Source of the DNA: Promethearchaeota archaeon
GTDB taxonomy: Archaea; Asgardarchaeota; Lokiarchaeia; Sigyniarchaeales; SOKP01
Assembly: GCA_004524535.1 (NCBI GenBank)
Contig: SDNY01000003.1
Location: 7,138-71,137, forward strand
Reading direction: 5' to 3'
DNA: 64,000 nucleotides
Under the pieces are notes generated by a model, which was not told the DNA's origin, did not search any database, and saw only the letters and a program-made list of their open reading frames with translations. A program made the translations under genes and the position numbers. The stretch's first letter is position 1, and the number at the start of each line of letters is the position of its first letter. Shown piece after piece: positions 16,051 to 62,632 of this stretch.

Positions 16051-16080
16051 TTATAATTCTAAGAAATTTTTCAAGATGTA
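16051..16080 (-). repeat. trpG/pabA 3'-end relic
   Basis: TAC ATC TTG AAA AAT TTC TTA GAA TTA TAA = YILKNFLEL*; 25 nt identical to the 27081 copy. Confidence 0.8.
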
Positions 16081-16103
16081 TTAGATCTAAGACTAGATTA
16101 ATT

Positions 16104-16220
16104 AATTTCCTCAATATCTGGAGGTATTGAATAATCACTATTAATCTCTGCTTACAATGCTAATTTCTGAGGTTCCAGTATTTTTCCTATATCCTCCTTA
16201 TTTGCATATTCAATTAACAT
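16104..16220 (-). pseudogene. Second GNAT 5' fragment with internal stop
   Basis: MLIEYANKEDIGKILEPQKLAL*AEINSDYSIPPDIEEI; aligns with the 13603-13728 relic. Confidence 0.6.
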
Positions 16221-16233
16221 TTTACTCTCACTT

Positions 16234-16716
16234 TTACTCTTTTTTTTTGGGGCGAATTAAAATAATATGAATTGTCACAGCTATAGCAATGATGATTAGA
16301 ACATATCTAACCCATATAATTTGAATAAAAATAAACGATGTTAAAAGAATTGTTATCCATAACATAGAAATCGTAAAAATTTTGACTTTTATAGGCATTC
16401 CTTTTCCTTCTCTAAAGTTTCTAATATATGAGCCAAGAATCCTATTGTTTAATAACCAATTATAAAATCTTTTAGAACTTCTAGAAAAGCATCCTGCTGC
16501 AAGTAAAAGAAAAGGGGTAGTGGGTAAAATAGGTAAAATTATTCCTATAATTCCTAAACTTAAACAAATGATCCCCCCAGTAAAATATAATCCCCTGACA
16601 TACTTATTGCGTTCTTTCGCATCCTCCTCATTTAAATTTTCAGGCTCGTTATTTTCTAGTTCAGAGTTACTAGATCCTTCTTCTGGGAGATCAGAGTTTT
16701 TCTCGTATTGATCTAT
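16234..16716 (-). CDS. YbaN/DUF454 family membrane protein, probable ATA start, missed by the ORF track
   Basis: Hand translation gives LGIIGIILPILPTTPFLLLAAGCFSRSSKRFYNWLLNNRILGSYIRNF. No in-frame ATG/GTG/TTG precedes the conserved region. AGTGA + 6 nt + ATA at 16716. Confidence 0.85.
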   Translation of the reverse strand: MDQYEKNSDLPEEGSSNSELENNEPENLNEEDAKERNKYVRGLYFTGGIICLSLGIIGIILPILPTTPFLLLAAGCFSRSSKRFYNWLLNNRILGSYIRNFREGKGMPIKVKIFTISMLWITILLTSFIFIQIIWVRYVLIIIAIAVTIHIILIRPKKKE

Positions 16717-16907
16717 AATATTTCACTACTTAAGTGTTCCTAATAAATTGAATTACTTACAATTTATATTTTCTTCCTAGTTAATAAAAAAAAATGTAAT
16801 TTTAAAATGGAATTGTCTACTTTTTTTTTCTATACGCCTGTATTTTTATTTATATCAATATTACCAAGTCTGGGGACGCTGCTGATACCAGGGATCCTAT
16901 TAAGCTA

Positions 16908-19124
16908 CTATGCGAGATCGAAACGATCTAAGTTCATAACTTTATTCCACGCTGCTACAAAGTCGTTCAGGAACTTTTCCTGACCGTCATCACTACCGTA
17001 TACTTCTGCTAATGCCCTTAATTGGGCGTTTGAGCCGAAGATGAGATCAATACGGGTAGCTGTCCACTTAAGTTCACCTGTTTCAATATCATGCCCTTCA
17101 AATAAGGTTTTATCTTCATTAGTTGCTTTCCATGTTGTGTTTATATCGAGCAGATTCACAAAGAAGTCATTTGTAAGCGCCTCAGGTCGTTTGGTGAAGA
17201 CACCATGCTGCGTCCCTCCAAAGTTGGTCTTTAGGATGCGTAAGCCCCCCACGAGCACTGTCATTTCGGGCGCGGTCAGAGTTAACAATTGCGCTTTGTC
17301 AACCAGAATTTCCTCAGTTGATACGGCATATTTAGTTTTCTGGTAGTTGCGGAAGCCATCCGCTAGGGGTTCGAGAACGGCGAAAGATTTTTCATCTGTT
17401 TGCTCTTGTGATGCATCCATTCGTCCTGGTGTAAAGGGAACCTTTACTTCATTACCAGCATTTTTTGCAGCTTGCTCAATACCTGCACAACCAGCCAGAA
17501 CGATCAAATCAGCAAGGGATATCTTCTTGTTGTCAGACTGTGCTCCATTGAATTCAGTTTGAATGCTTTCCAAGGTTTTGAGAACCTTCGCTAACTGGTC
17601 AGGTTGATTAACCTCCCAATCCTTCTGTGGTGCTAGACGAATCCGAGCTCCGTTCGCACCACCGCGTTTGTCTGAGCCACGGAACGTGAATGCCGATGCC
17701 CAGGCAGTCGAAACTAGTTCCGAGACAGAAAGGCCAGATGCTAGGATCTTACTCTTGAGTGATGCAATGTCCTTTTCATCAACTAGTTTGTGATCTACTG
17801 GTGGGATTGGATCCTGCCAGATGAGTTCTTCATCAGGAACTTCCGGCCCTAGATAACGAGATCGTGGACCCATGTCACGGTGAGTCAGCTTGAACCATGC
17901 TCTGGCAAACGCTTCCTGAAATTCATCTGGATTCTCCATAAAGCGTCGTGAAATCTTTTCGTATATAGGATCGAACCGTAGAGAAAGGTCGGTGGTTAGC
18001 ATAGATGGTGCATGGCGTTTATCTGGGATATGTGCATCTGGTATGGTACCAGCACCCGCACCACCCTTTGGTGTCCATTGATGCGCGCCAGCAGGACTCT
18101 TTGTCAATTCCCATTCAAAACCAAATAAGTTCCAAAAGAAGTTGCTACTCCATTTCGTGGGAGTGGTAGTCCAGGTGACTTCCAGACCACTACTTATCGT
18201 GTCGGCACCTTTGCCTGAACCATAGTTACTCTTCCAACCTAGTCCCATATCTTCTATATCTGCCGCTTCAGGCTCGGGTCCCACATGATCTGCGGGACCA
18301 GCACCATGGCATTTTCCGAATGTGTGGCCACCTGCGATGAGTGCCACTGTCTCCTCATCATTCATAGCCATACGTCCAAAGGACTCGCGAATATCCTTAG
18401 CCGCTAGAACAGGATCAGGATTACCATCTGGACCTTCTGGATTGACGTAAATCAAACCCATCTGCACGGCTGCGAGCGGATTTTCGAGATCAGGTTTATC
18501 TTTATCGCCTGTGTGCCAGCGTTCATCACCCAACCATTCTTCCTCAGAGCCCCAGTAAGTATCCTTTTCTGGTTCCCAGATATCTTCACGCCCGCCACCG
18601 AAACCGAAGGTTTTAAAACCCATCGATTCTAAGGCAATGTTACCCGTGAGAATCATCAAGTCAGCCCAGGAGATTTTTCTCCCATATTTTTTCTTGATTG
18701 GCCAAAGCAACCGACGTGCCTTGTCGAGGTTAACATTATCAGGCCAGCTACTGAGAGGGGGGAAGCGTTGATTTCCACTGCCACCCCCGCCACGACCATC
18801 CCCGACACGGTAGGTACCGGCACTGTGCCATGCCATACGGATGAACAAAGGACCATAATGACCAAAATCCGCTGGCCACCAACTTTGGGACTTTGTCATT
18901 ATTTCCGCGAGATCTTTCTTCAATGCCTCATAATCGAGACTATTGAACTCTTTGGCATAATCGAAATCCTCGTCCATTGGATTAGATTTAGAGGAATGTT
19001 GGTGTAGAATATCGAGATTCAACTGGTTCGGCCACCAGTCTTGGATAGTCGTGCCACCACCGGCTGTTGGCCTTTTCATCTTGCCCAATACAGGATTTTT
19101 TTTTTCATCATTCATGTTTTTCAC
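16908..19124 (-). CDS. katG: Catalase-peroxidase
   Basis: [65 protein letters not shown]. Confidence 0.98.
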
Positions 19125-19399
19125 TCTTTTTAATTTGAGAATTTTTAAATTTTGTCCTATACTAAACTGGAAATTTATTTAAATTTATAAAGAATCTAAA
19201 TCAGACTAACACTAAGATTCCTAAATAATAACTATTTTTATTTAGTTACAGTTTTTTAAAAAAGATTATGTCTTTATTTTATAAATAAAAAAGAAAAATG
19301 ATTTAACCAGATAATCACTAAAGAATTAGGTCTATAAATATTCACGTTTTAGCAATCTTAAAAAAAGAGTGTATTAAATAATATTCTTATATTTTTGAT

Positions 19400-61602: not shown

Positions 61603-61800
61603 TCATTAATTTTGATATTATCTAAAAATAAGATTAAAATATACATATAACTAATAAGAATGTAATGAGTATGAATCCATATCCTCAACTATTATGGTAG
61701 CTTATTTAAATTTCATATTTTATCACCATTTAATATTTATTAACCAATTTAATAATTCTTATTTGTCTTAATTTCTATGTTCACATTATTATTCTAAGAA
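61603..61800. pseudogene. Chimeric relic: aminoacylase upstream region and start fused to a VOC 5' end and upstream region
   Basis: 61575-61672 aligns to 59027-59127; 61674-61800 aligns to about 56459-56583. Confidence 0.85.
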
Positions 61801-61840
61801 GTTGGCAAAAGCATAAATATTATCTTGAAAAATTGAAAAA

Positions 61841-61963
61841 ATGAAGCTTATTATTGATTCTAACATATTAATCTCTAGCTTATTAAAAGATTCAAACACT
61901 AACGAACTACCTTTTAATGAATCATTCACCTTTTATTTATCTAAAATTGTTCTGATGAGATAA
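61841..61963 (+). pseudogene. Truncated PIN domain toxin
   Basis: MKLIIDSNILISSLLKDS...FTFYLSKIVLMR*; DEIRK continues in another frame. Confidence 0.7.
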
Positions 61964-62003
61964 GAAAATAAAAAATAAATTATTAGAACACTTATTTTAA
62001 AAT

Positions 62004-62213
62004 ATGGAATTAGATAAATTTCCTGATATAATCAAATTATCAACTAAGGAAAAGATCTCGCTTGTTGAAAATTTATGGGATAGCATTAGATCTGAGATTG
62101 AATCTAACCCAATCCCTAAAAGTCATGAGCAAGAACTAGACAAGCGTGAAAAGACGCTAAATAGGAATACTCTTTTATCTATTGAAGACCTTAAAAAGCG
62201 AATTAAAAAATGA
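62004..62213 (+). CDS. Addiction module antitoxin
   Basis: LSTKEKISLVENLWDSI...ELDKR. Confidence 0.85.
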   Translation: MELDKFPDIIKLSTKEKISLVENLWDSIRSEIESNPIPKSHEQELDKREKTLNRNTLLSIEDLKKRIKK

Positions 62214-62527
62214 GTTCAGACCATTCTTTAAGATTTCACCCCGAAGTTGAAGGAGATCTTCAAAAAATCTACTCTTGGTACGAAGAAAACCTTACTGGTC
62301 TTGGACATGACTTTCTTCAAATCTTTTATTCAAGTATAGAAATGATAACGGAAAATCCTCTTCAATTTCCAAAAATATATAAAAATTATCACCGTTACTT
62401 ATTGCGAAAGTTTCCGTATGCGCTTTATTATATCGTTAAAAATGATTTAATTATTGTTATGGGCATATTTCACCATTCTCGTGATCCTAAAAAAATAAAA
62501 TCTGCTTTAGTAAATCGAACTGATTAA
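62210..62527 (+). CDS. ParE/RelE family toxin
   Basis: LRFHPEVEGDL..IYSWY, HRYLLRKFPYALYY, GIFHHSRDP; ATGA overlap. Confidence 0.9.
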   Translation: MSSDHSLRFHPEVEGDLQKIYSWYEENLTGLGHDFLQIFYSSIEMITENPLQFPKIYKNYHRYLLRKFPYALYYIVKNDLIIVMGIFHHSRDPKKIKSALVNRTD

Positions 62528-62563
62528 ACTAAGAATTGATGCTTAAACAAGGTAAATAGTTAA

Positions 62564-62632
62564 TTATAATTCCAAGAAATTTTTTAGAATTTACATTCCA
62601 TAGGGTTTCATTTTTATCGACTCGGGATGGAA
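62564..62632 (-). repeat. trpG/pabA 3'-end relic
   Basis: FHPESIKMKPYGM*ILKNFLEL*, including the natural stop. Confidence 0.93.

Follow-up and report, generated by a model that had tools for sequence, protein, structure and literature searches.

Copies of the trpG 3′ end partition a probable additive genomic island in a Lokiarchaeial archaeon

How does the last stretch of a single housekeeping gene come to be repeated, always on the same strand, across some 47 kb of an archaeal chromosome? The question is raised by the DNA analysed here, 64,000 nucleotides (nt) of contig SDNY01000003.1 (the window), whose intergenic regions hold at least ten minus-strand segments resembling the 3′ end of trpG. 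A preliminary description had interpreted these segments as relics left by repeated insertion at the end of the gene and had called the locus integron-like. After comparing the window with related genomes, we think it probable that it contains ~47 kb from the distal side of an additive genomic island. The whole island would exceed 50 kb and would have grown by repeated recombination at the trpG tail. The wider phenomenon is a lineage-wide insertion hotspot at the trpG tail, which builds arrays of small gene modules without a detected recombinase.

The window has a G+C content of 32% and is archaeal in gene content, with a TATA-binding protein (TBP) gene at 15333-15965 and a TrmB regulator (Pfam). 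Related loci are numbered here with the prefix L. One of them, L001 (the same as L008), a contig of the metagenome-assembled genome (MAG) TEKIR_6S, is 98.4% identical to window 60331-64000 and extends 2.6 kb further right, where it carries two longer relics (130 and 83 codons), a ParE pair and a TauE gene. The 122-amino-acid (aa) open reading frame (ORF) on the longer relic matches thousands of 197-aa proteins, and the nearest TrpG proteins are 197-aa anthranilate synthase component II sequences from Promethearchaeota/Lokiarchaeota. These matches indicate that the source of the window is a Lokiarchaeial (Promethearchaeota) archaeon. The Pfam GATase match for this amidotransferase family has an E-value of 7e-35, and the His-Pro-Glu of the FHPES motif contains the His/Glu pair of the Cys-His-Glu triad of class I glutamine amidotransferases. 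In long contigs of relatives, trpG is the final gene of trpDCFBAEG. As the preliminary description proposed, trpG itself lies beyond the right end, on the minus strand, and the relics share its orientation; the 2.6 kb that L001/L008 adds on that side does not reach the intact gene. Rfam and tRNA scans of the window gave no matches. Public gene calls name long relics of this kind GATase proteins (L001 1010-1378 and 2032-2259; L007 14721-15158 and 19409-19618).

A nucleotide hidden Markov model (HMM) was built from the final 28 codons of trpG in 145 sequences, leaving out the window and the near-identical L008, and both strands were searched. Eight places in the window matched the model with E<0.01, and two more did so marginally (E 0.15 and 0.19). 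The ten sites are all intergenic and minus-strand; further matches had E>2 and fell on both strands. Six-frame translation and repeat finding recovered every site listed in the preliminary description at its minus-strand position, each yielding parts of ...IPVEELQFHPESIKMKPYGMQILKNFLEL followed by a stop codon. Circularity was avoided by deriving the model from outside sequences. The repeats are, as had been proposed, displaced 3′ ends of trpG.

The same arrangement recurs in related genomes. Scans of species-representative genomes and JGI metagenomes gave 116 Asgard-type loci, and a tblastn search of these loci and the window with full-length TrpG returned 84 full-length trpG genes and 104 partial high-scoring segment pairs. 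None of the 104 partial copies lies on the strand opposite trpG, and all of them lie downstream of it. An intact 197-aa trpG heads the array in more than 20 loci. Two to four copies occur within a few kb in independent contigs (L007, L009, L041, L100, L112, L133, L138, L139 and L144), the spacing from relic to relic is often 0.6-1.3 kb (L041, L139, L144, L112 and L100), and many modules measure 0.6-2 kb. Relic arrays were not seen in the 20-odd bacterial loci examined from the same scan (L040-L066). Contigs often end 20-1500 nt after the trpG stop (L011, L013, L016, L018, L033-L035 and many of L086-L163), as expected at a hypervariable or repeated site. In L124, two full-length trpG copies (534-1124 and 10548-11123) stand 9.4 kb apart, with trpE preceding only the first, which implies that a displaced copy can be the entire gene.

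Could the copies be a generic dispersed repeat, such as a miniature inverted-repeat transposable element (MITE), or chance similarity to the GATase motif? The genome is AT-rich, and the shortest copies (16052 and 39279) are individually weak, as such explanations would allow. However, 10 of 10 copies in the window and 104 of 104 elsewhere are found on the trpG strand, downstream of the gene, HMM E-values reach down to 5e-22, and the in-register homology extends over up to 197 trpG codons. The strand and position data refute the MITE reading, and no terminal inverted repeats were found; the earlier view that the copies are not dispersed holds, and we give both of these explanations practically no weight.

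Comparisons between relatives show where the copies come from. The trpG bodies of L110 and L112 are 89% identical. From codon ~175 onward, the functional tail of L110 and the downstream 227-aa gene are 94.5% identical to the second relic of L112 and the DNA behind it; the tail of L112 itself differs from that of L110, and 1.47 kb containing two extra modules precedes the matching relic. Likewise, the trpG genes of L103 and L128 are 96% identical, and the L103 tail and downstream DNA are ~98% identical to the third relic of L128 and the DNA downstream of it, behind 5.2 kb of extra modules. L096/L136 and L149/L144 are further intact-versus-relic pairs. In these pairs, the 3′ end of the target is regenerated by incoming sequence, the old tail is displaced, and older units are pushed distally from a single proximal insertion site. 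They bear out the proposal that recombination at the 3′ end of trpG, with the gene being regenerated, produced the array, and cross-genome comparisons also revealed the predicted variation of gene content as blocks. L003 and L004-L006, which have identical trpG, showed no strain-level cassette differences; their sequences are identical and the gene calls alone differ.

The comparisons also point to the unit that is exchanged. Among cross-locus pairs that include a short relic, 150-nt flanks are shared downstream only in 12 cases (two of them intact-versus-relic), upstream only in 1 and on both sides in 3. A unit consisting of a tail (...NFLEY), a ~75-nt leader and a glyoxalase gene is conserved in the window, L091 and L150. 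A second unit, which begins with a tail, takes in a ParE pair and ends at the next core, is shared by L009 and L041 at 95% identity, in different surroundings. The downstream-only sharing and the intact/relic pairs imply that the moved or exchanged unit is the tail together with its downstream genes, with breakpoints at the 5′ edge of the tail.

Where within trpG do these breakpoints fall? After dropping duplicates and contig-truncated copies, 85 partial copies remained. Twenty-two start at codons 174-176 (...gttcaa/TTCCATCC..., with the slash marking the boundary), and unrelated sequence runs right up to the boundary; another five start at codons 180-182 with unrelated DNA immediately upstream. 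Because the first matching bases differ slightly and unrelated sequence reaches the boundary, we take the 22 junctions to be independent events. Four copies are clear left halves, with the 3′ part missing. Three of them break off within codons 178-184 (window 59023-59069 at codon 178, L046 and L133 at codons 183-184), and the fourth, L159, at codon ~188. The units are delimited by co-oriented direct repeats of a target fragment with junctions at a fixed core, and we read the ~30 nt that hold most of the sharp boundaries as a putative recombination core.

The junctions bear directly on whether homologous recombination could suffice, with circles or linear fragments carrying a piece of trpG inserted by Campbell-type or double crossover and blocks shuffled by unequal crossing-over. 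Partial copies of widely differing length, up to full length, would fit random trpG fragments, and tails that are 75-95% identical over 60-400 nt offer sufficient homology for existing modules to spread in this way. Homologous recombination cannot, however, make new junctions at a fixed place, yet the 22 starts at codons 174-176 arose there independently, and exchange points between relatives fall at the same core. As the whole explanation, we consider it unlikely.

Based on these observations, we favour growth of the island by repeated recombination at the trpG tail. The target would be a ~30-nt site near the end of the gene, at codons ~174-184 of 197 (...GTTCAA/TTCCATCCNGAATCNATHAARATGAA...). 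The mobile unit would be a module headed by a spare copy of the trpG end, comprising ~14-24 codons and the stop, followed by 1 to ~10 cargo genes in either orientation with their own leaders. The tail of an entering module would become the new trpG end, leaving the gene intact, and the previous tail with everything behind it would shift one step away, giving a co-oriented series of tails and cargo. Afterwards the array would be rearranged and worn down by homologous recombination between tails and by relic-independent deletions and insertions. The aligned sequences themselves show where the junctions lie and that old tails are displaced. The reaction would be site-specific recombination, presumably catalysed in trans, since no recombinase is encoded in the modules and many of them measure just 0.6-2 kb; such mobilisation in trans would resemble that of cis-mobilizable elements (CIMEs) or integron cassettes.

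Several observations weigh against this model. No recombinase has been identified, and we infer site specificity and action in trans from the junction positions alone. The remaining ~55 of the 85 copies start across codons 1-172, at ~0.3 per codon, and about 50 of the 85 are longer copies with starts anywhere between codon 1 and ~170. These long copies and the locus with two full-length genes are not predicted by a single fixed crossover, and imply either an additional homologous route or att arms carrying extra trpG sequence. The tails of array-bearing genes are not more relic-like than those of array-free genes, and relic quality within the window shows no significant fall with distance from trpG (Spearman 0.47, p 0.17). 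Some blocks differ between relatives without bounding relics: L009 lacks window segment 58995-62715 (at ~18144) and has no relic at the junction, and extra segments without relics occur at L009 15605-17200, L131 715-1839 and L014 11027-13349, indicating that ordinary insertions and deletions also remodel the islands. Pairwise comparisons, moreover, cannot separate insertion from deletion.

If an enzyme acts at the core, where is it encoded? The preliminary description stated that the window encodes no recombinase, and Pfam searches agree: among all 60 window ORFs there is no tyrosine or serine recombinase and no PF00589-type match. Its prediction of a recombinase next to trpG was not borne out. 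The upstream neighbourhood of trpG is the trp operon, no recombinase was found beside the gene, and the ORFs searched downstream gave only cargo. Pfam detected cargo alone, and no integrase, in 30 ORFs of related arrays (recurrent families, trpG-adjacent genes and large unknown ORFs); a regular expression for the HxxR...Y catalytic boxes found no integrase among 1140 ORFs from about 100 related loci; and in PHROGs searches with 124 ORF-cluster representatives, no integrase family was matched by two or more members among the matches listed. The sole exceptions were one or two 'transposase' singletons among the PHROGs matches. An element-encoded tyrosine or serine integrase was thus found in no unit of the window or of the sampled related loci. 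IMG/VR scans yielded no viral or plasmid contig carrying the site, seven pattern matches being limited to the pattern itself, and no circular contigs were found among the loci.

These searches touch most closely on the possibility that the modules are eroded autonomous elements (proviruses, plasmids or tycheposon-like elements) that once had an integrase of the tyrosine or serine type, with an attP corresponding to the trpG tail. Such elements are the standard origin of partial-target repeats, and Prochlorococcus islands hold partial tRNAs and fragmented integrases (bioRxiv 10.1101/2020.12.28.424599). Deletions do occur in the arrays studied here: ParE genes and genes of the c3 family (described below) are truncated beside relics, and relic-independent insertions and deletions are present. 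On the other hand, no integrase, integrase fragment or replication gene appeared in any of the ORF sets just described, and no viral contig in IMG/VR bears the site. Relic spacings of 0.6-1.3 kb are too small for autonomous elements and would need near-complete, remarkably regular erosion. We regard an origin by erosion as possible, if on balance doubtful.

The term integron-like raised the further possibility of a true integron, or of a cluster of attC sites lacking an integron integrase (CALIN), with cassettes captured by IntI at attC sites. Small cassettes (toxin-antitoxin, acetyltransferase, glyoxalase) inserted at one end fit such a system, and Asgard MAGs are enriched in attC clusters (PMC9668308). 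However, IntI or another tyrosine recombinase is missing from the window ORFs, and no IntI was found beside the attachment site, either in the upstream trp operon or by PHROGs on the 124 representatives. RNAalifold on 79 relics gave 0 kcal on either strand, with single-relic z-scores of -0.8 to +0.1, and no consistent inverted repeats occur within 200 nt of the relics. Without conserved secondary structure or nearby inverted repeats, the relics are not attC-like. No attC-type site trails each cassette; the repeat leads its module and is linked to downstream, not upstream, DNA. The modules are also not promoterless cassettes in one orientation, as their genes lie on both strands and a ~75-nt leader separates tail and glyoxalase gene. 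The resemblance to integrons therefore holds for the architecture and ends there, and a true integron is very improbable. Integrase-less integrative mobile elements exploiting Xer (IMEX) use the host Xer at a dif-like site with two ~11-bp inverted arms and a 6-8-bp spacer. By eye, only a weak 11-9-11 dyad can be discerned in the core, TTCAATTCCAT-N9-ATNAAAATGAA, with agreement at 8-9 of 11 positions, which is within chance by a rough estimate.

One protein family, c3, offers a lead, rather than a finding, on a possible site-specific nuclease; neither the window nor most arrays contain it. Its members include the 497-aa form of L137 (1405-2898), L128 5711-7507, L124 1171-2676, L140 4360-6084, L023 10207-12978 and L182 6249-7664. 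In 11 loci a close c3 gene is present, and in every one it lies directly against the end of the first trpG copy, convergent with it; truncated remnants occupy this position in two more. The family is patchy relative to trpG similarity, being present in L128, where it sits in the newest module, and absent from L103, which has a 96% identical trpG. Only 13 homologues were found among 5.8 billion proteins; the distant ones lie near restriction-modification and transposase genes, away from trpG. In confident AlphaFold2 (AF2) models (pLDDT 80-83), the protein folds into 5-6 helical repeats and a C-terminal domain of alpha/beta type, where the motif ...HLDGYN...AFEYNGPQHY... is conserved. Searched by sequence against Pfam and PDB, c3 gave no matches. 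Foldseek found nothing significant; the best nuclease-like match was the catalytic domain of the homing endonuclease I-Bth0305I (3r3p_B; E 2.8, probability 0.21, TM 0.47).

A homing-type nuclease, with c3 as the candidate, could cut the trpG tail, and repair would then copy a donor module between trpG and a copy of the tail. The constant position of c3 beside trpG, its patchy distribution in a tiny family, its place in the newest L128 module and the predicted fold would all suit this scheme. Against it, the structural match is below significance, Pfam and PDB give no match by sequence, the window and most arrays have no c3, and classical homing replaces sequence without duplicating the tail of its target. 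We consider homing quite unlikely as the origin of the arrays. A broader proposal is that Lokiarchaeia possess an undescribed gene-capture system, in which the trpG tail serves as attachment site and cargo-only modules are moved in trans by an enzyme unlike the classical integron or phage integrase, maybe c3 with a presumed Vsr/EDxHD-like nuclease domain, making the system an integron analogue of independent origin. This proposal is tentative and, in its full form, rather unlikely; if true, a functional analogue of the integron would have evolved independently in the archaeal lineage nearest eukaryotes. There is a fair chance that the mobilising enzyme could make the arrays a new kind of cassette system.

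The additive island can be followed through the window from its right end, nearest trpG, to the left; all relics are on the minus strand, and most gene assignments are from Pfam. The preliminary account of the individual relics carries over, apart from the upstream reach of the copy at 61513 to codon ~166, the in-frame stop of that at 62564, the frameshift of that at 29537 and the weakness of that at 39280. Positions 62641-64000, with two DUF998 membrane-protein genes, belong to the next module towards trpG, whose leading relic (83 codons) lies just past the window end in L001/L008. The relic at 62565-62640 covers codons ~174-197, interrupted by the stop (GM-stop-IL; nhmmer E 2.7e-19; tblastn 95% over 22 aa), and leads an antitoxin/ParE pair (62004-62527). 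A ~60-nt remnant of a ParE gene end precedes it, and its upstream flank is homologous to ParE-relic junctions in L009/L041. The following relic, 61515-61617 (codons ~166-197 with a 1-nt deletion near codon 169; nhmmer E 4.7e-22 over 61515-61598; tblastn 93% over 28 aa), leads an antitoxin gene (61214-~61420), a ParE gene (60924-61217) and an amidohydrolase gene (59120-60763). The antitoxin ORF as called, 61214-61606, is artificially lengthened at its 5′ end through this relic.

Between these two modules, 61655-61803 is a truncated module start, in which ~5 codons from the end of the tail (61788-61803) are followed by the leader and the opening ~16 codons of a glyoxalase gene. The scrap reported earlier at about 61788 fails the HMM (E 39), yet it is a genuine remnant, a ~150-nt duplicate of the end of the 56572 relic and the glyoxalase start: 61675-61764 is 94% identical to 56459-56548, and 61655-61803 enters a four-way alignment with window 56572, L091 and L150. 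At 59023-59069 lies a left-half relic, with codons ~165-178 only (...IPVEGLQFH) and unrelated DNA next to them (nhmmer E 0.15 over 59023-59049). It is 91% identical over 47 nt to 61571-61617, and a 12-nt sequence, ATTCCATCyCGA, is common to it and the start of the 62564 relic.

The relic at 56574-56618 starts from codon ~183 (MKPHGMHILKNFLEY; nhmmer E 6.5e-11) and leads genes for a glyoxalase (56150-56500), an aldehyde:ferredoxin oxidoreductase (54305-56089), a GH3 glycosidase (51986-54217) and an amidohydrolase (50267-51934). The relic at 50188-50222 (codons ~182-193; nhmmer E 1.8e-6) leads a ~10.9-kb module (39355-50120) with an esterase, two URO-D-like proteins, a DUF6036 nucleotidyltransferase pair, a GH5 glycosidase, an MFS transporter and unknowns. 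Two intergenic regions of this module share a 47-nt direct repeat (44167-44213 and 46301-46347, 87% identical), which may be a shared regulatory element. The marginal relic at 39279-39307 is intergenic and retains the last ~10 codons (KILKNFLTL; nhmmer E 0.19); after it come a MazE-like antitoxin gene (38917-39150) and a 171-aa ORF (38398-38913). At 38318-38394, codons ~174-197 (QFQPESIRIKPIGMQILKNFLEL; nhmmer E 7.6e-18) lead an 8.7-kb module (29715-38298) with DUF3604-like, MFS, amidase, sulfatase, metallo-beta-lactamase and TrmO-like genes. The frameshifted relic at 29536-29595 (from codon ~175; nhmmer E 7.7e-9) leads an amino-acid kinase gene (28375-29184) and an ATP-grasp gene (27157-28353), and the relic at 27082-27130 (from codon ~182; nhmmer E 4.8e-4) leads an 11-kb module (16908-27004) with a TrmB regulator, two HGD-D and two BcrAD/BadFG genes that form a 2-hydroxyacyl-CoA dehydratase/activase set, and KatG. 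The G+C content of the KatG region (16000-20000) is 38-40%, as against ~31% in its surroundings, which suggests a recent foreign origin. The most distal detectable relic, 16052-16078, consists of the last 8 codons and the stop (ILKNFLEL; nhmmer E 5.5e-3; 8/8 aa) and is followed by the TBP gene. Pfam also identified an amine oxidase in the window, whose totals include two MFS proteins, two amidohydrolases, two ParE pairs and a MazE pair.

Left of the last relic, the window reaches a conserved flank (222-8593, minus strand) of two ABC-2 permeases, an ABC ATPase (5071-5580 and 5588-6133), a prenyltransferase-ABC fusion and a 584-aa protein. In the relic-free Lokiarchaeial contig L164, the same flank genes, in the same order and relative orientation and with 50-73% aa identity to those of the window, begin 2.7 kb after trpG, with two genes between. 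The comparison indicates that at least 47 kb in the window, and the DNA past its right end, were added between trpG and the conserved flank. The intervening region, 8594-16051 (TBP, an M28 peptidase, an MIT/TPR protein and unknowns), lies between the last detectable relic and the flank, and its content is absent from the island-free L164; it may represent either older modules with decayed tails or lineage-specific native genes. The ABC ATPase gene is split into two ORFs in the window and is a single 354-aa gene in L164, reflecting either a frameshift or pseudogene or a sequencing error.

The cargo of related arrays (Pfam, 30 ORFs) comprises GNAT/methyltransferase fusions, alcohol dehydrogenases, esterases, a fucosidase, nucleoside hydrolases and response regulators. 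In L103, a trpG-proximal module contains an actin-family gene (13224-14363; Pfam Actin 6e-24), so that a gene of the eukaryote-signature type lies within the mobile DNA of this genome. In L111, the module next to trpG (6202-9515) encodes a PRTase-CE protein and an AAA_21/AAA_15 ATPase, a combination suggestive of an anti-virus defence pair.

No known organisms are more closely related to eukaryotes than Asgard archaea, whose genomes contain many imported metabolic genes of bacterial type. The trpG tail is a concrete and recurrent point of gene entry in dozens of independent Lokiarchaeial assemblies, where the island stacks metabolic, transport, stress, toxin-antitoxin and defence genes, with an actin-family gene in one relative. 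Its ~70-nt sequence provides a handle for finding islands, mining reads for moving modules and hunting the enzyme, and the order of modules relative to trpG can be used for relative age, proximal modules being expected to be more recent. In practical terms, short-read assemblies break at the site, and long relics are misannotated as 'glutamine amidotransferase'.

How does this island compare with known systems? Archaeal integrative elements with SSV-type and pNOB8-type integrases insert at tRNA genes. Among Asgard elements, aloposons are tRNA-site elements with giant genes, HeimM and HeimV have also been described (PMC8813620), and the integrative mobile genetic elements of Atabeyarchaeia have tyrosine integrases and an 11-bp motif (PMC11529989). 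The trpG islands would share with these elements site-specific chromosomal integration and differ in target and type of unit; an identity with aloposons is ruled out by the tRNA sites and giant genes of the latter. A term search of both papers (PMC8813620 and PMC11529989) found no trpG, anthranilate or amidotransferase sites and no arrays of small modules. The literature covered, with subscription journals outside the coverage, describes neither an attachment site in trpG nor arrays of this kind in Asgard archaea, and an integrase-free gene-capture island at the trpG tail appears not to have been described previously.

In marine bacteria such as Alteromonas, additive flexible islands are tRNA-adjacent stacks of cassettes with direct repeats of the target 3′ end, and integrases are present. 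Like them, the trpG islands are strain-variable stacks delimited by direct repeats between conserved flanks, whereas theirs are tRNA-targeted and bacterial. At the 3′ end of fda in Streptococcus thermophilus, integrative and conjugative elements (ICEs; ICESt1/ICESt3) and CIMEs accrete into tandem arrays separated by att sites, and units without an integrase are mobilised in trans or in cis. There, as here, the attachment site is the 3′ end of a protein-coding gene that is regenerated on integration; the fda arrays consist of two or three large elements with a known adjacent tyrosine integrase, whereas the present arrays have at least ten small modules and no integrase was found in them. With sedentary chromosomal integrons and CALINs, the trpG islands share a single insertion point, the newest unit nearest to it, small cargo-only units and arrays free of recombinase. 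The cargo is also similar, with ParE-type toxin-antitoxin pairs, GNAT/methyltransferases and glyoxalases in both. Unlike integrons, they have no IntI, attI/attC or folded single-strand site; a housekeeping gene is restored by their repeat, which is a piece of coding sequence, and their genes point either way and have leaders of their own.

The closest described process is that of the tycheposons of Prochlorococcus, in which repeated integration at tRNA genes pushes older elements inwards and leaves partial tRNAs (Hackl et al.; bioRxiv 10.1101/2020.12.28.424599). Seven tRNA targets, 937 integrase-carrying elements and multi-kb integration and replication modules are reported for that system (bioRxiv 10.1101/2020.12.28.424599). 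Unlike tycheposons, the islands described here are archaeal and target a protein-coding gene, no integrase or replication gene was seen in them, and many of their units are single genes. Like tycheposon islands, they use one conserved gene end, push older units onward, leave scattered partial copies of the target and carry niche genes as cargo.

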